IMG/VR virus record: IMGVR_UViG_2920292642_000002
Location: 19,431-83,430 of that record
Reading direction: 5' to 3' (one strand)
Origin: a virus
Lineage: Duplodnaviria > Heunggongvirae > Uroviricota > Caudoviricetes
DNA: 64,000 nt
Position numbers and translations under genes: made by a program
In this document: piece by piece, positions 5,271 to 49,379 of the stretch
Numbering within the stretch: the first letter of the stretch is position 1
How the letters are laid out: every line of letters starts with the position of its first letter
The notes under the pieces: model-generated
The model's input: the letters and a program-made list of their open reading frames with translations, nothing else
Database searches by the model: none
Told to the model about the DNA's origin: nothing

Positions 5271-7577
5271 CTAACCATCGAGCGCCTGATCGATAATCTC
5301 TTGTTTCCCCACGATCTTTCCGAGCAGACTGTCGTCGAGAGAACCTTGCACGACCAGATGTTGTGCTATGACGTGGTCCGTCTGTCCGAAACGGTGAGCG
5401 CGGTCTTCGGCCTGACACAACTCGTGTGGCAGCCACGTCAGTTCGGCGCAGACGACAAAGCGCGCGGCCGTCAGCGTGTAGCCGGTGCCAGCAGCGGTGT
5501 ACTGACCGATAAACGGGTTGCAGTCCGGGTCGTCCTGAAAGCGATCTGCCTCGGCCTGCCTGTGCTTCGTCGGCGTACCGCCATAGATGCAGGCTGCGGA
5601 GTTGTCCCAGCGCTTCTTCAGCGCCTCGATCACCGCCCGGTGGTAGGCAAAGACAATGACCTTCTCGCCCTGCTCCATCAGGCTCTGGACGTGCTCGATG
5701 ATCATCGGCACCTTCTCCAGCGCCAGTTCGGCGCGGGCGATCGCGAGCTTGTTCAGTGGCGTGTCCGGATCGAGGCTGCCGTCGACCGTCTTGGCGTAGT
5801 CGTCGAACATCTGCGGTCTGGCGTTCATCACCAGTTCTGCGATGTCGGCGTCTGGCATGTCCTTATGGATGCCGAGATGGGCTTCGTACTGAGCCAGCAG
5901 CGCCTTGACTGCGCTCTTCTCAGCCGCGACCTTCTTGACCAAGCCTTCGGAGGAAAGCGGGATTACCTGCCGCGTCTTCGGCGGTAGGTCCTTCAGCACG
6001 TCGGCCTTGAGATGGCGGACCATGAAGCGGTCGCGCATGAGCTTGCGCAACTCGTCGAGGTTCGTCGCGCCGTTGTCGTCGAGCCCCATTGCCGTTTCAT
6101 AGGCACCGCAATAGCGATAAGCGAAGGCGCGGTAGTTGCGGCCGAGCCCGTCCGGATCGCAGCGCCGGACCAGCGGCCAGATGTTTTTGACGCGGTTCGG
6201 GATTGGCGTCCCGGTCAGGTAAAGCTCACGCTTGGCACTGATCTCCTTGAAGCGGCGCTTCTTCTTTTCGCGCTGGTACTTGTTGTCAGCGTCTCGAAAC
6301 TCCTCGGTGACCTTGATCTCCTTGCCGTAGGAGCCCATCACGTTGACGGTGCGGCGCGCGAGTTCGTTCTGGAGGTAGTGGGCCTCGTCACAGATCAGCA
6401 CGTCCCACGTGCCGGCGCGGATTGCCTCATAGTGCCGGTGCAGGATGTCGTAGTTGATGACGACGCATTCGGTATCCGGGAAGAAGTCGCCCTCGGCGAT
6501 GCCGACGCTGAGTCCGTGGATGTCCCACTTCTCGACGGCGCGCGCCCAGTGAATTTTATGGCTGGCAAGGCAGATGATCAGCACCGACCGGACTTCCGGC
6601 AGGTTGTTGCAGAAGCCGATGCCACTCACGGTGTTATGGGTAAGGATGAACTGATCGGTCAGGTACAGTCTGTCCGGAGCCTCGACCTCGATGCAGCGGA
6701 CGAACTCCTGACCGCAGGGCAGGATTTGCGTGATCGAGCGCGGCGGGATGCCGGGCACGAAGTGTTTCCAGCGGCGATGGATGCGTGTGACGTTTGGTCG
6801 ATAACCGACCAGAGACAGCCACAGATCGTCGGGCAGATAGATGTCGACCCGATTGTGCCATGGTAGTTTCTTGACCAGCGCCAGACCGCCGAGGCTGCGC
6901 GTGATCTGCACAATCGCCTCGATCAGGTCGGCGACCGGCTCGTTGTGATGTTTGATGAACAGGCGAATGTTCATGTCGCCGCGCACGCGGCCATGATTGC
7001 GGATGATGGCCGACAGGAACGCGATGCGCTGCCCCGGCGAGCCGTCGACATAGGCGAGCGGGTCGATGACGGGATAGCCTTCGATGCACGGTCGCATCAG
7101 ATGTGCGCCGGCCAGTCTCGGCTCGATCTCGTAGGTCTTGGCCAGAAACTCGACCGGCTTGCCGACTACCGGAAGATCGAACTGATCACCCTTCAACAGC
7201 CGCGCCGCGATTTCCGTGGTGCCGATCGTCACGAAGTCGCCGGCCACGTAGTCGTAGACGGTCCACAGATGATCGCCGTCGACAACGACAGACGCGCCGT
7301 CGCTGGTCATGACGCGATAGACCGGCAGGACACCGCGCTCGTGAATTTTGATGATGCGGTTTGGAGAGCCGTCCGATCCGAAGACGTGGTCACCCTCACG
7401 CAGATCGCCGACCGGTCGGAATCCTGTCGGGGTCGGCAAAAGCTGCGTCAGGGGATGGCCCTTGCCAAGGCCCGGCTGGTCGGCAATCAGCGTCCGCTTG
7501 CGCCGAAGCGCGTAGCGGATGCTGTTATGCTGAAAGTCTAGGTAGTTCTCGCCCTCGGGGCGAATGAGGACTTGCAC
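5271..7577 (-). CDS. SNF2-family DNA helicase/translocase, interrupted by an intein in the Walker A loop
   Basis: ADQPGLGK | 276-aa insertion | TVSGIGF restores GLGKT; DEAH box LICDEAHYLQN; motif III LTGTPIPN; C-terminal helicase motif QAEDRAHRFGQ. Confidence 0.8.
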   Translation of the reverse strand: MQVLIRPEGENYLDFQHNSIRYALRRKRTLIADQPGLGKGHPLTQLLPTPTGFRPVGDLREGDHVFGSDGSPNRIIKIHERGVLPVYRVMTSDGASVVVDGDHLWTVYDYVAGDFVTIGTTEIAARLLKGDQFDLPVVGKPVEFLAKTYEIEPRLAGAHLMRPCIEGYPVIDPLAYVDGSPGQRIAFLSAIIRNHGRVRGDMNIRLFIKHHNEPVADLIEAIVQITRSLGGLALVKKLPWHNRVDIYLPDDLWLSLVGYRPNVTRIHRRWKHFVPGIPPRSITQILPCGQEFVRCIEVEAPDRLYLTDQFILTHNTVSGIGFCNNLPEVRSVLIICLASHKIHWARAVEKWDIHGLSVGIAEGDFFPDTECVVINYDILHRHYEAIRAGTWDVLICDEAHYLQNELARRTVNVMGSYGKEIKVTEEFRDADNKYQREKKKRRFKEISAKRELYLTGTPIPNRVKNIWPLVRRCDPDGLGRNYRAFAYRYCGAYETAMGLDDNGATNLDELRKLMRDRFMVRHLKADVLKDLPPKTRQVIPLSSEGLVKKVAAEKSAVKALLAQYEAHLGIHKDMPDADIAELVMNARPQMFDDYAKTVDGSLDPDTPLNKLAIARAELALEKVPMIIEHVQSLMEQGEKVIVFAYHRAVIEALKKRWDNSAACIYGGTPTKHRQAEADRFQDDPDCNPFIGQYTAAGTGYTLTAARFVVCAELTWLPHELCQAEDRAHRFGQTDHVIAQHLVVQGSLDDSLLGKIVGKQEIIDQALDG
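6633..7460 (-). other. intein (276 aa) inserted in SNF2 helicase P-loop; first residue reads Gly (GGC) instead of Cys/Ser
   Basis: Hint blocks: A-like PLTQLLPTPTG...GDHVFGSDG, B DGDHLWTV, F/G LYLTDQFILTHN followed by +1 Thr; degenerate endonuclease-like middle. Confidence 0.6.
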
Positions 7578-8883: not shown

Positions 8884-11800
8884 ATGCCCAGCGAACAGAC
8901 CTTCCTCCAGACATGGCTCGGCGGAACCTTCGGCCACGTCGACGGTGACCTCGACTTCCTGAATGCAGATGGCTCAGCCATCGTCACGACCGGCGACTAC
9001 GCCGAGATCGTCCAGTTTATCGAGGAGCAGGAAGAGGTCTTCATCGATCTGGTGGCCGGCGAACTGTTCGCCGGCTTCGCTCTCCAGTTCCCGGACGATG
9101 GAAATGTCGAGGCCGGCGTGTTCGCGCCGAGCTTCGCGATTCGAGGCAACGGCTATCGCTGGGATGTCTATCTTACCGACGCCTCGGACGGTGAGCTTCG
9201 TGGTCTGATCGACGAGCTTCAGCCGCAACAGGACGACACCTATACGGTTGAACGCCTGATCCCGCTACCCATCAACAATTTCGAGATGTCGGACGCGGAC
9301 GCCGATCGCGCGACCGAAGGTTATCGGGTCTTCACTCTGGAGGAAATCGAGGCGGTCTTCTTCGCCCCTGTCGAGGAGCCGGCCGCGCCGGCGACCGAGC
9401 CGTCCGGCCACATCAACGACGCCGAAATCTGGGGCGACGTGACGCCCGAGATGCAGGCGCTCGAAGTCGCCATCTCCACCGCCAAGAATCGAGAGGCCAA
9501 GGAGTGGACGACCCACGACCCGAAGCCGTTCATGGACATCTTCCAGACCGTCTTCTCCAAGCACGTCGCCGGTAAGAAGGACGGCAACTCCGTCGTGCTG
9601 GGCGCGCTCGGGCAGCAGACCAAGCGGCGCACAAAGACCAACGTCATCCGCAATTCGATGATGGGGCTCGACATCGACTCGGGTGCGTCCATGGAGGAGA
9701 CCTTCCAGCGCGTCCGCAAGATGGGTCTGGCCGCGATCTTCTACACCACGCACAGCCATGGCTCGACCGAGATCGAGATCGCCTACGACAAGTTCTATCG
9801 CTGGGCGCTCAAGAATGAGATCGAGCCGTCCGAGTCGACGGAACTGATCCGCCGCTACATGCGCGAGGAGACCAACTACGTCTCCGACGTGTGCGACCAT
9901 TCCGAGTTCGTGGAGAAGCGTCACGAGGACGGCATGAAGCTGATCCTGCGCACCCGGCCGATCGACAAGTTCCGCGTGATCTTCCCGCTCAAGGAAGCCT
10001 TCGTCTACGCGCAGCAGCAAGGCGCGCATAAGGACGTGATCCATCAGTGGGAATTGAAGGTCCTCGGCATGGGCCGCTCGATCGGCGTCGAGATCGACCG
10101 CGTCGCGCGCGACCCGAGCCGCCTTTTCTACCTGCCGCGCCACGGTAAGGACTCTACCAACCATCGCATCATGCTGACCTGCGGTAAGCTGGTCGCCTAT
10201 GAGGATGTCCCGGCCGCGTCCACCACCAGCCGCGTCTCTGACGATCCGTTCGATCAAGCCGCCGCGATCATGGGCGGCACCATGCGTGGCCGCACCATGT
10301 CACCGACACTCGGCCTCGATCTCGGTCAGTGGGCGAAGGACCACGCGCACGAGTTCGACATTGCCAGCGTCTTTCGCGATCATTGTTCGGATCGCATCCG
10401 CGTCGAGCAGACGCAGGACAAGCTAACGGTCGAGTGTCCGTTCGACGACGACCACTCCAATCCCGGTGATCCCGACGATCCCGGCTGCTTCATCCAGTCG
10501 GCCGGCATGGAGGCGGAGAGCTTTGCTTTCCATTGCAGCCACGCCGGCTGCGCCGGCCGCAACCGTCTGGTCATGCTCCAGAAGGCGATGCAGGAGGACT
10601 GGTTCCCCGACAACGTCCTCAACGACAAGGTCTATCTGGTCGAGAGCGAGGACGAGGAGGAGGAAAAGACCAAGGACGACGCCGGTCCGGATGCGGATGA
10701 CGACGAGGTCGAGGACAAGGCCTATTCCGACCGTCATCAGGAGGCGGTCGAGGCCATCTCCAAAATCTCGAAGGAGGCCAAGCGCTCGCAGATCAAGGAG
10801 GTCTACGAACTGGTTGCGACACTCAACCGGTCGGACCGTGGTCAGTTGGCGAAGACGCTGGCGAAGAAGCTCGGACTCGTCAAGGATGACGTGATCGCCC
10901 ACATCAACAGCCTGCGTTCCAGCGGCGCGGTCGAGGTTGATGACGAGACGCCGGACCCTGCCTCCGTGGTCAAGAATCTGAAGCGCAGGTACAAGGCGTT
11001 CAAGAACTCGAAGAAGCCGATCGTGCCGCAGATCGACGCCAACATGAAAGGCTCGATCGACTATTTCGTAGACACGGTCAGCACGGTGAACGATCAGAAG
11101 CCGATGCTCTTCCTGTACGGCTCGGAGAAAATCCGCTGCGTCCGGTCGACCAATAACGAGTTCCATCCCGAGACTCTGTCCAAGCCGGTGATGCGATCGG
11201 TGGCGATCGAGGAACTGGACGTGGTCGAGATCACGGCGGATGGGACCGTGAATCGAAAGGCCGTCAATGACGTGATGGCCGAGCAGGCTTGCATGTCGAC
11301 CCGGTTGAAGCTGCACAAGCTCGACGGCTATTCCGACCTGCCCTACTTCACCCGTGAGGGCAAGCTGGTCACCACGCCCGGCTATGATCGCGACGGCCGG
11401 CGTATCCTGCGCCTCTCCGAGAATGCGGAAAGCGCCTATGCGCCGGACAAGTTGCTCCCGGTGACGGCCGAGAACCTGCGCTTGGCCAAGGATGAAATCC
11501 GCTACGTGTTCTCCGACTTCCCGTTCAAGGATGCGGAAGTCGGCGACGGCGGCGCGTCCTCCTATTGCCACCTTCTGGCAATGATGCTCCAGCCGCTGGT
11601 CCGATCCATGTTCGACGGCAACAGTCCGTTCTACATGGTCAACAAGCCGATGGCCGGCACAGGCGCGACGCTCATGGTCACCACGGCGATGCACATCGCC
11701 ACCGGCACCAATCCTGGCACCGTGGCGATGTCGCACAATGACGAGGAGCTTCGCAAGGCGATCACGGCCCGGTTCCAGACCGGAACCAACGTCACCTTCT

Positions 11801-12633
11801 TCGACAACCTGACCCAGCCGTTGAGCAGTCCGCATCTGGCGAACCTCGCGACTTCGGCGGAATGGGAGGATCGCATCCTCGGCCAGACGACGATGACCAA
11901 GATTCCGAACCGGATGCAGGTGATCGTCGCCGGTAACAGCGTGCGGACCTCGGAGGAGAACACACGCCGCGTGCTGCCGATCTTCCTCGATACGCTCGAC
12001 GATCCGACCGAGCGTAAGGGATTCAAAATCAACGACCTCAAGGGTTATGTCGAAGAGAACCGCGAGGAGCTTTTCAAATACCTTATCTTGTTGGTCCAGT
12101 ATTGGCTCCAGAACCGCCCGGCCGGCTGGGACTATCGCAACTGGAAGGGTTTCAAGCTGCCGTCGTTCGAGCAGTATTGCGCCGTCATGGGCTCCATCAT
12201 GGAGACGATCGGTGTCGAAGGCTTTGGCGTCAATTGCAAGTACGTCCGTGCCGAGAACTCGGACCGGCAGGCGTGGAACGTCTTCCTCGGCGAGGTCGCC
12301 TCGAAGGCCAAAATTACCGCACTCGTACCGTTCGTCGAGTCGAAGCCGTTCACCCAGCACCAGATGGCCGGCTGGTTCGTCGACTGGGAGAACAAGATGG
12401 AGCTTCGCGTCAACGGACAGGCGCGACCGCTTCAAGGTATCGACGTGGACGATGTCAACCGCGATTTCTCGCGTCTCGTGCCCGGCATCCAGAACAACAT
12501 CTTCAAGATCATGTGGGAGGAAGCGCGCGACCACCATGTCGAGGTCAAGGTCCGCTTGCACGTCGGCAAGGACGCCAAAGGCGCGCCGCTCTTCACTCTG
12601 CGGCGGGTCGGCGAGAGCGCCGAGGCAGCCTAA
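8884..12633 (+). CDS. large replication protein: putative primase-polymerase (AEP-like) with zinc-ribbon and C-terminal NTPase-like region (1249 aa)
   Basis: GLDIDSG (acidic motif) and YTTHSHGSTEI resemble prim-pol motifs I/II; CPFDDDHSNPGDPDDPGCF zinc-binding primase-like motif; acidic linker; no close recall beyond family level. Confidence 0.55.
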   Translation: MPSEQTFLQTWLGGTFGHVDGDLDFLNADGSAIVTTGDYAEIVQFIEEQEEVFIDLVAGELFAGFALQFPDDGNVEAGVFAPSFAIRGNGYRWDVYLTDASDGELRGLIDELQPQQDDTYTVERLIPLPINNFEMSDADADRATEGYRVFTLEEIEAVFFAPVEEPAAPATEPSGHINDAEIWGDVTPEMQALEVAISTAKNREAKEWTTHDPKPFMDIFQTVFSKHVAGKKDGNSVVLGALGQQTKRRTKTNVIRNSMMGLDIDSGASMEETFQRVRKMGLAAIFYTTHSHGSTEIEIAYDKFYRWALKNEIEPSESTELIRRYMREETNYVSDVCDHSEFVEKRHEDGMKLILRTRPIDKFRVIFPLKEAFVYAQQQGAHKDVIHQWELKVLGMGRSIGVEIDRVARDPSRLFYLPRHGKDSTNHRIMLTCGKLVAYEDVPAASTTSRVSDDPFDQAAAIMGGTMRGRTMSPTLGLDLGQWAKDHAHEFDIASVFRDHCSDRIRVEQTQDKLTVECPFDDDHSNPGDPDDPGCFIQSAGMEAESFAFHCSHAGCAGRNRLVMLQKAMQEDWFPDNVLNDKVYLVESEDEEEEKTKDDAGPDADDDEVEDKAYSDRHQEAVEAISKISKEAKRSQIKEVYELVATLNRSDRGQLAKTLAKKLGLVKDDVIAHINSLRSSGAVEVDDETPDPASVVKNLKRRYKAFKNSKKPIVPQIDANMKGSIDYFVDTVSTVNDQKPMLFLYGSEKIRCVRSTNNEFHPETLSKPVMRSVAIEELDVVEITADGTVNRKAVNDVMAEQACMSTRLKLHKLDGYSDLPYFTREGKLVTTPGYDRDGRRILRLSENAESAYAPDKLLPVTAENLRLAKDEIRYVFSDFPFKDAEVGDGGASSYCHLLAMMLQPLVRSMFDGNSPFYMVNKPMAGTGATLMVTTAMHIATGTNPGTVAMSHNDEELRKAITARFQTGTNVTFFDNLTQPLSSPHLANLATSAEWEDRILGQTTMTKIPNRMQVIVAGNSVRTSEENTRRVLPIFLDTLDDPTERKGFKINDLKGYVEENREELFKYLILLVQYWLQNRPAGWDYRNWKGFKLPSFEQYCAVMGSIMETIGVEGFGVNCKYVRAENSDRQAWNVFLGEVASKAKITALVPFVESKPFTQHQMAGWFVDWENKMELRVNGQARPLQGIDVDDVNRDFSRLVPGIQNNIFKIMWEEARDHHVEVKVRLHVGKDAKGAPLFTLRRVGESAEAA

Positions 12634-19189: not shown

Positions 19190-19599
19190 CAGAACAAAAC
19201 CTCTCCCCAATTACGCCGCGACCTGATTGCGGCTTCGTCAATCATCGACTGTTTCCACTTGACCCGGCCGACGACTACCACGTCCTCGATCGGGTAACAG
19301 CATCCGGCCACGCCGGAGCCACAGACGTACTCAGCTTGGGTCTCGTCGCACCATGCAAGGCGCGTCTTACCCTTGCCTGTATCGAACTCGCGGCACGACT
19401 CTTCGAGGATGTCTGCGATGATGGCCTCGAATCCAGTCAGTTTCGACGGCTTTCGCACATGTGCCTTCATGTAGCCCGTGACGCGCCACGTGTAGGGTCG
19501 CTGTCGCCACTTGGCATCCTCCACCGCTCTAGGATGATCCTCGCGCAGTTGGATGATATCGCCGATCCGAGGCACAAAACGAACAAGGGCGGTGCCCAT
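19189..19599 (-). CDS. hypothetical protein (136 aa)
   Basis: ORF track. Confidence 0.45.
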   Translation of the reverse strand: MGTALVRFVPRIGDIIQLREDHPRAVEDAKWRQRPYTWRVTGYMKAHVRKPSKLTGFEAIIADILEESCREFDTGKGKTRLAWCDETQAEYVCGSGVAGCCYPIEDVVVVGRVKWKQSMIDEAAIRSRRNWGEVLF

Positions 19600-46091: not shown

Positions 46092-46566
46092 CCCGAAATG
46101 GGAGGTCTTCGCCACCGGTCTGGCGGACGGCCTCACCGTTCTCGATGCCTATGAGCAGGCCGGCTACCCGCGCTCGGCCTCCTCGGCGTCGCAGTTGAAG
46201 AACCGGCCTGAGCTTCAGTCGCGCGTGCAGGAACTGATCTACGAGAAGCAGAGCGCCGCCCGGCGTGAGTCCGAGAATGATCCCGACATCAACCCGCACG
46301 AACTCAACCGTGCATGGTTGATCACCACGCTGATGAAGAATGTCGAGATCGCCCAGAAGGCGCAGCAGATCGCACCGGCCAACAAGGCGGTCGAGATGCT
46401 GGCCGAGATCATCGGCTACTCGCTCAAGAACCGTGGCGGCAAGAACGCCAACGACGACGACCCCAACAAGGACGGCGAAGCGCCCGGCTTTGATTTCGAC
46501 AAGGCCAATGACGCCATCGGCCGGCTCATGGAAGTGCTGCCGGACGCACCGACCGAGGGTAGCTGA
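46075..46566 (+). CDS. terS: terminase small subunit
   Basis: N-terminal HTH-like region PKWEVFATGLADGLTVLDAYEQAGYP typical of phage small terminase family; immediately upstream of terL. Confidence 0.6.
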   Translation: MPVLSNPKWEVFATGLADGLTVLDAYEQAGYPRSASSASQLKNRPELQSRVQELIYEKQSAARRESENDPDINPHELNRAWLITTLMKNVEIAQKAQQIAPANKAVEMLAEIIGYSLKNRGGKNANDDDPNKDGEAPGFDFDKANDAIGRLMEVLPDAPTEGS

Positions 46567-49379
46567 TGGCCCGTCCCTACCCTTACGCGGATCGGGACCG
46601 GGTCTACGCGTTTCTCAAACAGGCCGAAGAGTTCGCCACTCTGGTCGAGAAGATCGCCGAAGGTCAGGCCGATCACAGTCCCGAGCTTCAGGGCGCGCTC
46701 GCCGCGCTCACCGGAGCCACCGACCTGCATCAGCAGCACAAGGCCGTCCAATACATGCTGGATCGTGCCCGCAAGGAGCACGAGCGCCGGCTGATCGAGG
46801 CCGCGCCGAACGACTTCACCGCCTATGTCGAAGTGATCAATCCGGAGGAGCCGTGCGCCTCGAAGCTGCACCGCTTCCTCGGCGAGACGCTGATGGAGAT
46901 GGAGGCCAATTCCGGCCTCAAGAAGGGCGTCTCGATGCCACCCGGCCACGCCAAGGACATGTGCGTGTCCACGCCTGTGATGTTGGCGGACGGCTCGATG
47001 AAGCCGCTCGGCGAGGTCCAGGTTGGCGACTTCGTCATCACCCACACCGGCAGCGCCCGCGAGGTTCTGGAGGTCCACGATCAGGGCAAGCGCCCGGTCA
47101 TGCGTATGCGCACCCTCTGCGGCCGTGAGCTTTTTCCACATCCCGAGCATCCGTTCCTGACGCCGGCCGGCTGGGTGCAGGCGCAATATCTGAAGCAGGG
47201 TGACGTACTGGCGCAGCAGCGCGAGTTCTCGATTCCCAACGGCTCCGGCCGGTCCCTCTACGATTTCATTCTGGCCGGCTACATGATGGCGGCTGGCATG
47301 GTGCGCGGCCGGCATTACAGCCGCGTCTTCACCGTCGACCGCACCTTCCGCACCGACGATCCCGAGATCATGGCCGATCTCATCGACACGGCCAAGCGAC
47401 TAGGATTCCGCGCGCGGATCGCCAAGAAGGGTAGCTACGGCAAGGAGATCGAGACCGCCCGGTTCGATGAGAAGTTCATCCACTGGCTGCGTGGCCAGCG
47501 CCTGAACGGCCTGCACCGCCATACCATGCGGGTCCCCGACTGGGTGTTCAAGGGTGGGCTGATCGAGATCGCCGCCTTTGTCGGCGCGATCTTCTCGATG
47601 GACGCCAGTCTGGTGCCGACCTCCCACAAGCAGAGCCTGAACGCCCGCAAGATGGTGATCCGGCTGCGCAACGCCGGATTGGTTGGTGACATGCAGCGGC
47701 TGCTCGCCCGCCTCGGCGCGCGCTCGGCACTCGATAAGCATCTGGTCAACAACTACAACTACGAGCCGACCGAGTTCTGGAGCCTGACGGTCTGGGACGC
47801 CGAGGATCAGTATTATCTCCAGCGCTCGATGCGCGTGCGTGGCGTCAACCAGCGCCTGTGGGCCGACCCGATCGTGCCGCGCGCCTTCTTCGACGGACGC
47901 TATGCCACCGACCGCATCATCGCGATCGACTATGACTGGGACGTGCGGGAGACCAAGTGCCTGACCGTCGACGAGGACCATTCCTTCCTCGCTGATGGCG
48001 TGGTGGTGCACAACTCCACCTATTGCTCGCGCCTGTTTCCGTCGTGGTGGATGGGCAAGCGCGAGAACAAGCGCTGGCTTCAGGCCGGCCACACCCAGCG
48101 TTTTGCCGAGAAGGAGTTTGGCAAGAAGACCCGCGACAACATCCTCGCCACGGCAGCCTATCAGAAGGTGTTTCCGGGCGTCGGGGTCAGCACCGCCTCG
48201 CAGGACGAGATCATCCTGACCAATGGCTGCGCCTACAACGTCAAGGGCGTCGGACAGGGCATCTCGGGTTACCGCTCGCACTTCAACAACGTCGACGACC
48301 CATACGCGACCCATGAGGACGCGATGAGCCCGACCATCCGCGAGAAGGTCTGGAACTGGTGGGCGAACGACTTCAGGACCCGTCGCCTGCCGGGCGCGGG
48401 CGAACTGATCATCGTGACGCGCTGGCACACCGACGACGTGGTCGGCCGTCTGGAGGAGATGATCAAGAAAGGCGAAATAGAACCATGGGAGTTTATTAAT
48501 CTACCCGCGTTTGCGGTAGAAGAAAACGATGTATTAAATCGCAAAATTGGTGACGTTTTGTGGCCGGAAGTATTCAAAAAAGAATTTCTTCTGGACATAA
48601 AAGGCACCAGTACGGAAGAAAACTGGTCCGCCCTGTACCAGTGTGCGCCAGTGTTGGAAAAGGGCAACATCCTCCAGCGTAACTGGATTAAATACTATAA
48701 ACAACTGCCGCAGCGTAGTATTCGCCCGGCTGGTACTGTGCAGGCCGTGAACCGGGCTCCCGTGGCCGATCCGCGCCTCGTACGGGTGGACCCTTTGAAA
48801 TTCAAAATCGGGGCCGAGGGACCCTCGGAATCGAAACCGGGGCCGGCCGATTCTGGAAATCAAAATTCGGTTTTTGCAATTCGAACCGTGGTTTCCGTCG
48901 ACACCGCCGAAACGGATTCGGCAAGGGCCGACCGCTCGGCGCTTCAGGTCTGGATTTATGGATCGGACCGCAACCACTATCTGGCGCATGCCTCGGTCGG
49001 CAAGTATCTGTTCCCCGACCTCGTCGAGGCGATCGAGACGACGGCGCTGGCATGGGGAGCCGATCTCGTGCTGATCGAGACCAAGGGCGCGGGTCTGCAA
49101 TACATTCAGGCGCGCACCGGCCACTCGCAGACGCCGATCATCGGTTTCAACCCGAAGAACATCGAGAAGTCGATGCGCTTTGACGGCACCATGGTGATGT
49201 GGCAGACCGGCACCGTGCTGCTGCCGGAGAAAGGGACATGGCTGGCCGACTATGTCGACGAGCTTCTGAAGTTCCCGTCTGGGCGTTACGACGACCAAGT
49301 CGACGCGACCAGCCAGTATTTGCACTGGCACCGGATCGACGGCGGCTGGGATCGCGGCATGAAGAAGATCAAGGGCTGA
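46566..49379 (+). CDS. terL: terminase large subunit interrupted by a 351-aa LAGLIDADG intein
   Basis: N-extein ...MPPGHAKDM | CVSTPVMLADG...VVVHN | STYCS...; C-terminal nuclease/ATPase region typical of TerL. Confidence 0.8.
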   Translation: MARPYPYADRDRVYAFLKQAEEFATLVEKIAEGQADHSPELQGALAALTGATDLHQQHKAVQYMLDRARKEHERRLIEAAPNDFTAYVEVINPEEPCASKLHRFLGETLMEMEANSGLKKGVSMPPGHAKDMCVSTPVMLADGSMKPLGEVQVGDFVITHTGSAREVLEVHDQGKRPVMRMRTLCGRELFPHPEHPFLTPAGWVQAQYLKQGDVLAQQREFSIPNGSGRSLYDFILAGYMMAAGMVRGRHYSRVFTVDRTFRTDDPEIMADLIDTAKRLGFRARIAKKGSYGKEIETARFDEKFIHWLRGQRLNGLHRHTMRVPDWVFKGGLIEIAAFVGAIFSMDASLVPTSHKQSLNARKMVIRLRNAGLVGDMQRLLARLGARSALDKHLVNNYNYEPTEFWSLTVWDAEDQYYLQRSMRVRGVNQRLWADPIVPRAFFDGRYATDRIIAIDYDWDVRETKCLTVDEDHSFLADGVVVHNSTYCSRLFPSWWMGKRENKRWLQAGHTQRFAEKEFGKKTRDNILATAAYQKVFPGVGVSTASQDEIILTNGCAYNVKGVGQGISGYRSHFNNVDDPYATHEDAMSPTIREKVWNWWANDFRTRRLPGAGELIIVTRWHTDDVVGRLEEMIKKGEIEPWEFINLPAFAVEENDVLNRKIGDVLWPEVFKKEFLLDIKGTSTEENWSALYQCAPVLEKGNILQRNWIKYYKQLPQRSIRPAGTVQAVNRAPVADPRLVRVDPLKFKIGAEGPSESKPGPADSGNQNSVFAIRTVVSVDTAETDSARADRSALQVWIYGSDRNHYLAHASVGKYLFPDLVEAIETTALAWGADLVLIETKGAGLQYIQARTGHSQTPIIGFNPKNIEKSMRFDGTMVMWQTGTVLLPEKGTWLADYVDELLKFPSGRYDDQVDATSQYLHWHRIDGGWDRGMKKIKG
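46962..48014 (+). other. intein with double LAGLIDADG homing-endonuclease domain inside terL
   Basis: block A CVSTPVMLADG, block B HPEHPFLT, LAGLIDADG-like LYDFILAGYMMAAGMV and LIEIAAFVGAIFSMDASL, block G VVVHN + Ser. Confidence 0.75.

Follow-up and report, generated by a model that had tools for sequence, protein, structure and literature searches.

A class 3 intein starting with glycine splits the P-loop of an SNF2 helicase of phage type

Introduction

How might an intein splice when its first residue carries no nucleophile? This question is raised by a gene for an SNF2-family helicase on the minus strand of a 64,000-nucleotide (nt) stretch of Caudoviricetes DNA (IMG/VR record IMGVR_UViG_2920292642_000002, positions 19,431 to 83,430; hereafter designated the window), in which the Walker A motif is split by an intein starting with Gly in place of Cys or Ser. 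The original prediction for this locus had held that the first step of splicing has no nucleophile, and had offered a sequencing error, a splicing-dead element, or a non-canonical mechanism in explanation. We found that this premise was wrong, because Cys256 in block F of the insert is the predicted nucleophile, and that the insert, which interrupts the P-loop of an SNF2 helicase of phage type, is, with a probability of about 0.9, a functional intein of class 3. The intein is an unannotated new example of its class; the mechanism (2010), the host family, and the insertion site were already known.

Results

Boundaries of the intein and its host helicase

The precursor open reading frame (ORF) and its parts are located in the window as follows (aa, amino acids; a slash marks a splice junction).

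5271..7577, minus strand: precursor ORF of the SNF2-family helicase split by the intein (GTG start, 768 aa).
7461..7577, minus strand: N-extein, aa 1-39, which ends with the GLGK of Walker A (Lys-1 at 7461-7463).
6633..7460, minus strand: class 3 intein, 276 aa, 828 nt, splitting Walker A as GLGK/T.
5271..6632, minus strand: C-extein, with the remaining SNF2 ATPase core (DEAH, TGTP, motif VI) and Helicase_C.
6630..6632, minus strand: Thr+1 (ACC), the residue that opens the C-extein, predicted second nucleophile and Walker A Thr.

In the minus-strand translation, the junctions read ...LIADQPGLGK/GHPLTQLLPTPTGF...DQFILTHN/TVSGIGF... or, in a longer reading, MQVLIRPEGENYLDFQHNSIRYALRRKRTLIADQPGLGK/GHPLTQLLPTPTGFRPVGDL...EFVRCIEVEAPDRLYLTDQFILTHN/TVSGIGFCNN... 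The boundaries K/.../T are exact, because orthologues without the intein have GLGKT(I/L)Q at the insertion site. Thus, the originally proposed insertion at GLGK/.../TVSG, with a C-terminal His-Asn followed by Thr, was confirmed precisely at 6633..7460, and any alternative splice boundary was ruled out, since the intein-less GLGKT orthologues set K/G...N/T. Pfam matches to SNF2-rel_dom (1.4e-21) and Helicase_C (3.2e-15) lie in the parts flanking the insert, and conceptual splicing yields a 492-aa helicase in which GLGKT, DEAH, TGTP, and QAEDRAHRFGQ are all intact; the spliced host protein contains the SNF2 N-lobe, Helicase_C, and motifs I, II (DExH), III, and VI expected of an SNF2-family member.

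Class 3 signature of the intein

The two splicing halves of the insert and their key residues, designated by intein block and position (for example, B:12 for position 12 of block B), are the following.

7173..7460, minus strand: N-terminal Hint half, intein aa 1-96, with blocks A and B (from the secondary structure of the model described below; matches residues 6-69 of 6bs8).
7458..7460, minus strand: Gly1 (GGC), non-nucleophilic first residue, starting the conserved Gly1-His2-Pro3.
7269..7271, minus strand: His64, B:10.
7263..7265, minus strand: Trp66, B:12, the W of the WCT triplet.
6633..6755, minus strand: C-terminal Hint half, intein aa 236-276, with blocks F and G.
6693..6695, minus strand: Cys256, F:4, putative initiating nucleophile.
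6639..6641, minus strand: Thr274, G:5, the T of the WCT triplet.
6633..6638, minus strand: His275-Asn276 (CAT AAC), penultimate His and cyclising C-terminal Asn.

Gly at position 1, encoded by GGC at 7458-7460, was confirmed. The intein blocks A, B, F, and G are recognisable, as had been noted before, but the diagnostic triplet of Trp B:12, Cys F:4, and Thr G:5 had been overlooked. With DGDHLW in block B, VRCIEV in block F, and LTHN/T in block G, the class 3 signature is complete: residue 1 is no nucleophile, and Trp B:12, Cys F:4, Thr G:5, and Thr+1 are joined by His B:10 and the terminal His-Asn. In class 3 inteins, a nucleophile is not required at position 1, and the cysteine of block F attacks the N-terminal junction (Tori et al. 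2010, PMC2807308). A non-canonical mechanism, the last of the three explanations first offered, is therefore very probably the correct one, yet it would be not an unexplained mechanism but the established class 3 route. These inteins, which are reported to be monophyletic and carry Thr or Ser, rarely Cys, as the +1 residue, are found in DnaB, RecG, SNF2, and terminase proteins, mainly in the ATPase P-loop (PMC2807308, PMC3196547, PMC4031507); an SNF2 host and insertion in the P-loop are typical of the class according to the paper that defined it (PMC2807308).

The insert does not conform to class 1, in that position 1 is a Gly conserved in the family and not a Cys, Ser, or Thr nucleophile. Class 2 (KlbA-type) inteins likewise have no nucleophile at position 1, which is what an assignment to that class could appeal to; they are, however, known just from KlbA orthologues of archaea, where the WCT triplet is missing, residue +1 is Cys, and F:4 is Asp (PMC2807308, PMC3196547, PMC4031507), in contrast to the WCT triplet, Thr+1, and SNF2 host found here. 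We consider a class 2 intein highly improbable at this locus.

Fold and nearest solved relatives

When the intein was compared with all PDB sequences using phmmer, the best matches were the class 3 DnaB inteins of Mycobacterium smegmatis (DnaBi1, 6bs8; 1.2e-12) and M. chimaera (DnaB1, 6rix, 1.1e-11; 6riy, about 1e-11), whereas the wild-type class 1 gp41-1 intein gave just 0.014. The alignments to 6bs8 and 6rix place HLW on HQW, VRCIEV on VRCVEV, and THN on THN. An AlphaFold2 model of the intein, built with 31 related inteins as input, was predicted with a mean local distance difference score (pLDDT) of 95.1 and a template modelling score (pTM) of 0.92. In Foldseek searches, the whole chain matched inteins at a probability of 1.00, including the endonuclease-bearing inteins PI-SceI (1.5e-12) and TliVMA, and the class 3 DnaB inteins were the best among the mini-inteins (6bs8, 5.5e-8), with target TM-scores of 0.76-0.83 for 6bs8 and 6rix. 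Because of the phmmer match at 1.2e-12, the confident AlphaFold2 model, and the Foldseek matches, the insert is a genuine Hint-fold intein and not a chance match.

The kinship with 6bs8, the closest solved relative and itself a class 3 intein of M. smegmatis DnaB, also raises a reading that would add to, not replace, a functional class 3 intein, namely that, with an internal thiol as the initiating nucleophile, oxidation or the binding of a metal could switch splicing and hence the phage helicase. Mycobacterial DnaB inteins are reported to sense oxidative stress and to be reversibly inhibited by zinc (PMC6195587, PMC7360933), and the intein contains two cysteines, Cys125 and Cys249, besides Cys256. 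Neither of these two is conserved in close relatives, Cys256 being the sole invariant cysteine, and no sequence feature points specifically to regulation. Such conditional splicing seems unlikely here.

Comparison with known inteins

The closest precedent by host and site is the Snf2 intein of Deinococcus radiodurans, which is reported to splice efficiently by the class 3 mechanism (PMC3196547). A genome scan returned D. frigens and D. rhizophilus, and not D. radiodurans itself; the D. radiodurans intein (Brace et al. 2010, as cited in PMC3196547 and PMC4031507) was viewed through these two counterparts, which occupy the identical site and start with Ala1 (DDMGLGK/AQPLDA...IVTHN/T). Seen in this way, the Deinococcus inteins resemble the helicase intein in their class, their SNF2-family ATPase host, and their Walker A position, as well as in Trp B:12, Cys F:4, Thr G:5, and Thr+1. 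They differ in starting with Ala1-Gln2-Pro3 in place of Gly1-His2-Pro3, in their length (about 343-348 aa by match length versus 276 aa with a shortened, motif-less endonuclease), and in their host, a much larger bacterial SNF2 protein compared with the phage-type helicase of about 490 aa; the identity between the inteins is just about 25-36%. Other AQP-type relatives contain a Pfam LAGLIDADG_3 domain, which is absent as a Pfam match in the helicase intein.

The class 3 prototype, the DnaB intein of mycobacteriophage Bethlehem (PMC2807308), shares the non-nucleophilic residue 1, the WCT triplet, Thr+1, the phage origin, and a helicase ATPase as host; mutagenesis of this intein established the mechanism and showed Cys F:4 to be obligate. 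It differs in having Pro1, Ser at B:7, a length of 341 aa with an endonuclease domain, and DnaB, not SNF2, as host. The DnaB mini-inteins of 6bs8, 6rix, and 6riy share the P-loop context (K/.../S or T) and align exactly in blocks B, F, and G, but they have Ala1, are hosted by DnaB, and comprise about 139-146 aa with no endonuclease remnant.

Conservation of Gly1

A sequencing or assembly error that turned a true first codon TGC (Cys) into GGC would make the insert a canonical class 1 intein, and GGC is indeed a single substitution away from TGC. A homologue query with the intein alone by word-index search gave no match; searches with the full-length protein and with a profile both gave relatives. 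Among 184 relatives of the full-length protein in a set of 5.8 billion proteins, 99 carry an intein at the same site, and their first residue is Gly in 83, Ala in 8, Leu in 3, Cys in 2, and Gln, Glu, and Arg in 1 each. Residue 2 is His in 59 and residue 3 is Pro in 85 of these 99 homologues. Lys-1, His B:10, Cys F:4, Thr G:5, and the C-terminal His-Asn are present in all 99 and Trp B:12 in 97, and the +1 residue is Thr in 96 and Ser in 3.

The codons of Gly1 were examined in 80 viral contigs and in reference-genome loci. At 38 independent viral loci, Gly1 is encoded by GGG (15), GGT (8), GGC (8), and GGA (7); since all four Gly codons are used, selection acts on the amino acid. The comparison of alleles in related phages, which had been proposed as a check on the sequence, gave the same answer, with Gly1 recurring and encoded by GGT in the closest orthologue, that of Mesorhizobium phage Cp1R7A-A1 (73% protein identity). 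Moreover, the rest of the intein, with Cys F:4 and Trp B:12, is of class 3 and not of class 1. Gly1 is thus the norm of the family, and we give virtually no credence to an error at this codon.

Because the same-site sample had been gathered partly through extein similarity, a search with an intein-only profile was made against 1.84 billion cluster representatives, giving 17,184 matches at E<=0.001, of which 3,491 reached E<=1e-30. Among about 200 intein copies in 131 new top-scoring proteins, counted independently of the exteins, Cys F:4 was present in 202 of 202, Trp B:12 in 199 of 206, Thr G:5 in 199 of 202, and His B:10 in 205 of 206; Lys-1 preceded 130 of 199, and the +1 residue was Thr in 150, Ser in 45, and Cys in 7. 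The first residue was Ala in 80, Gly in 52, Pro in 31, Ser in 8, Met in 6, and Cys in 5, as assigned by an offset that assumes no insertions or deletions in the first <=12 residues and corrects for the bias toward Gly-His-Pro (GHP) among HMMER alignments reaching profile position 1. As judged from these predicted inteins, Gly is the second commonest first residue of class 3, after Ala. In P0122, P0123, P0124, and other proteins, the class 3 profile matched 4-6 separate stretches per polypeptide of 1400-1900 aa, which suggests that one host protein can carry multiple class 3 inteins.

Selective constraint and inheritance

The ratio of nonsynonymous to synonymous substitution rates (dN/dS; Nei-Gojobori method, relative to the phage orthologue) was 0.18 for the extein, 0.21 for intein aa 1-95, 0.20 for aa 236-276, and 0.43 for the central aa 96-235. 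Purifying selection on the splicing halves is as strong as that on the helicase. The intein is present in every homologue above about 44% identity, the nearest intein-less relatives being about 43% identical over the C-extein. Among 35 relatives with a short intein, the identity of the inteins follows that of their exteins (Spearman rho 0.87, p 2e-11), in keeping with a fixed element passed on vertically together with its host gene; the intein looks fixed and vertically inherited.

These values bear on the proposal that the intein is splicing-dead, so that the helicase gene would be inactivated in the manner of a pseudogene or would yield just an unspliced, perhaps regulatory, protein. Dead class-3-like inteins exist, and the precedent, Arth_1007 of Arthrobacter sp. 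FB24 (PMC3196547), shares Gly1, grouping with class 3, and a prophage origin with the helicase intein; the decay of the endonuclease domain of the helicase intein also speaks for this proposal. Arth_1007, which is experimentally dead, lacks His B:10 and Cys F:4, however, and its vestigial exteins total just 66 aa. The helicase intein, in contrast, keeps those two residues and all other catalytic residues of class 3, which are conserved, within a frame open over 768 aa and with the helicase motifs intact; its Hint halves are under the constraint given above, and relatives with as little as about 40% extein identity keep the same architecture. We regard a splicing-dead intein as very unlikely.

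Three points weigh against a functional class 3 intein. The Pfam model Hint_2 matches the insert below threshold, at 18.1 bits versus a cut-off of 28.4. The split class 3 intein AceL NrdHF no longer spliced once A1G had been engineered into it, which the authors blame on lost strain at the scissile bond (PMC7891396), a result that also lends some weight to a dead intein. Finally, a literature search turned up no biochemical study of any natural Gly1 class 3 intein. Since A1G kills AceL NrdHF, some class 3 scaffolds do not tolerate Gly1, and the presumed compatibility of Gly1 with splicing here is argued from conservation. Presumably, the natural Gly1 inteins compensate, the co-conserved His2-Pro3 being the obvious candidate.

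Remnant of a homing endonuclease

The intein is longer than a mini-intein by about 140 residues, which correspond to the following feature.

6756..7172, minus strand: degenerate LAGLIDADG homing-endonuclease remnant, intein aa 97-235 (by hhalign).

No Pfam endonuclease model rose above noise in the intein or in 30 close relatives. Profile-profile alignment (hhalign) to 52 relatives of greater length (325-370 aa), many of which carry a Pfam LAGLIDADG_3 domain, gave a probability of 100 (E 6.5e-96) and revealed that the short-intein clade has lost about 60 residues from the first endonuclease half. The first endonuclease motif, PYllGxLlgdG, has become PRLAGAHLMRPC (LlgdG to HLMRPC) and the second, RlaLLqGLMDtDG, has become RIAFLSAIIRNHG (LMDtDG to IIRNHG), so that both catalytic acidic residues of a LAGLIDADG endonuclease are lost; an active enzyme would have two LAGLIDADG helices, with one such residue in each, and both DNA-binding beta-sheets. 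The central domain remains confidently folded in the AlphaFold2 model, and its dN/dS of 0.43 indicates relaxed yet real constraint. Some 35 relatives, whose inteins measure 273-289 aa, share this remnant state.

Judging from these lost motifs, the intein very probably has no homing activity of its own and, because its LAGLIDADG endonuclease has decayed, is probably no longer mobile. Antisense and out-of-frame endonucleases have been reported in actinophage inteins (bioRxiv 10.1101/2025.01.02.630785). Such an arrangement was rejected for this locus: the ORFs at 6945-7541 (plus strand), 6012-6866 (plus), 6634-7089 (minus), and 6659-6913 (minus) have no meaningful Pfam match, and the in-frame middle domain folds confidently.

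Proposed splicing mechanism

We infer the splicing chemistry by analogy with the established class 3 pathway, from which it is taken; the present analysis itself provides the signature, fold, nearest relatives, conservation, and selective constraint. In the first step, the thiol of Cys256 (F:4) would directly attack the peptide bond between Lys-1 and Gly1 (Lys39-Gly40), helped by His64 (B:10), Trp66 (B:12), and Thr274 (G:5), to give a thioester-linked "block F" branched intermediate. Since the nucleophile of class 3 inteins is not residue 1, a side chain would not be needed at Gly1. The N-extein would then pass to the hydroxyl of Thr+1, forming the standard block G branched intermediate, and cyclisation of Asn276 would free the intein. 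A final O-to-N acyl shift would rebuild Walker A (GLGK-T) and thereby the active 492-aa helicase. The intein may be retained because the helicase would work only once the intein has been spliced out.

Annotation and genomic context

The GTG start at 7577, giving the 768-aa precursor, is favoured because homologues have about 35 residues ahead of GLGK; this start abuts the stop of the upstream ORF. In the public record WP_273033168 (739 aa), the helicase begins just 6 residues ahead of the P-loop, and the helicase coding sequence in the phage record (L001 6001..6088) begins 87 nt after the homology-supported start. The identical protein appears in public records of Pseudaminobacter soli as "hypothetical protein", "SNF2-related protein", or "DEAD/DEAH box helicase", and none of the product names returned for the protein and its phage orthologue mentions an intein.

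The helicase gene and its neighbours are collinear with the 131-kb Mesorhizobium phage Cp1R7A-A1, the shared products being a large protein of about 1250 aa, a tyrosine recombinase, the helicase, a YfbR-like protein, a methyltransferase, and a family A DNA polymerase, and the terminase of the window is 70% identical to that of Cp1R7A-A1 at matching distance and orientation. The window thus belongs to a phage or prophage of this kind, and the intein sits in a Cp1R7A-A1-like element of P. soli. This context fits the phage origin that has been proposed for class 3 inteins (PMC3196547, PMC4031507). Since it lies on a 391-kb P. soli contig, the window probably represents either a large prophage or a phage genome that was co-assembled. 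Two further features of the window are as follows.

46956..48014, plus strand: second P-loop intein, 353 aa, in the terminase large subunit (Terminase_6N/6C), within the ORF 46566..49379.
8884..12633, plus strand: 1249-aa ORF adjoining the tyrosine recombinase, with no Pfam domain at E<=0.01.

The junctions of the terminase intein read PPGHAK/DMCVSTPVMLADG...TKCLTVDEDHSFLADGVVVHN/STYCSRLF. It starts with Asp1, with no nucleophile at position 1 and a Cys at position 3, has a weak LAGLIDADG_3 match, and carries Phe B:12, Cys F:4, and Val G:5, that is, "FCV" as opposed to the "WCT" of class 3. The intein of the Mesorhizobium phage terminase orthologue likewise starts with DMCV. A homologous intein in the phiCbK-type terminase large subunit (TerL) has been annotated as K/PLDVDT...VVVHN/S, with Pro1, and its authors report that this K and S adjoin each other without variation in 50 TerL proteins that have no intein (PMC3556154). 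The gene of Cp1R7A-A1 at the position corresponding to the 1249-aa ORF is comparable in length (3768 nt) and encodes a hypothetical protein.

Discussion

The value of the present finding lies mostly in correcting the first reading of this locus: where a P-loop intein starts with a residue other than Cys or Ser, the Trp/Cys/Thr triplet should be checked before a sequencing error or a dead gene is invoked. The public records of the helicase protein and its phage orthologue leave the intein unannotated and place the gene start just ahead of the P-loop. The helicase intein is also a class 3 intein midway through the loss of its homing endonuclease.

The sole part of the finding with residual novelty is the compatibility of Gly1 with splicing. 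Because an engineered Gly1 abolishes splicing in an Ala1 class 3 intein (PMC7891396), the inteins starting with Gly1-His2-Pro3 may strain or activate the scissile bond differently, for example with Pro3 stiffening the backbone and His2 acting as a catalytic residue. That they form a large class 3 subgroup with such a route of its own and with a redox or metal switch on the phage helicase in addition, is a speculation to which we would assign a low likelihood. The characterised class 3 examples start with Ala1, Pro1, Cys1, or Ser1, whereas Gly1, usually followed by His-Pro, appears as the second commonest start in a very large metagenomic family, and a Gly1 representative would be a reasonable target for biochemistry.

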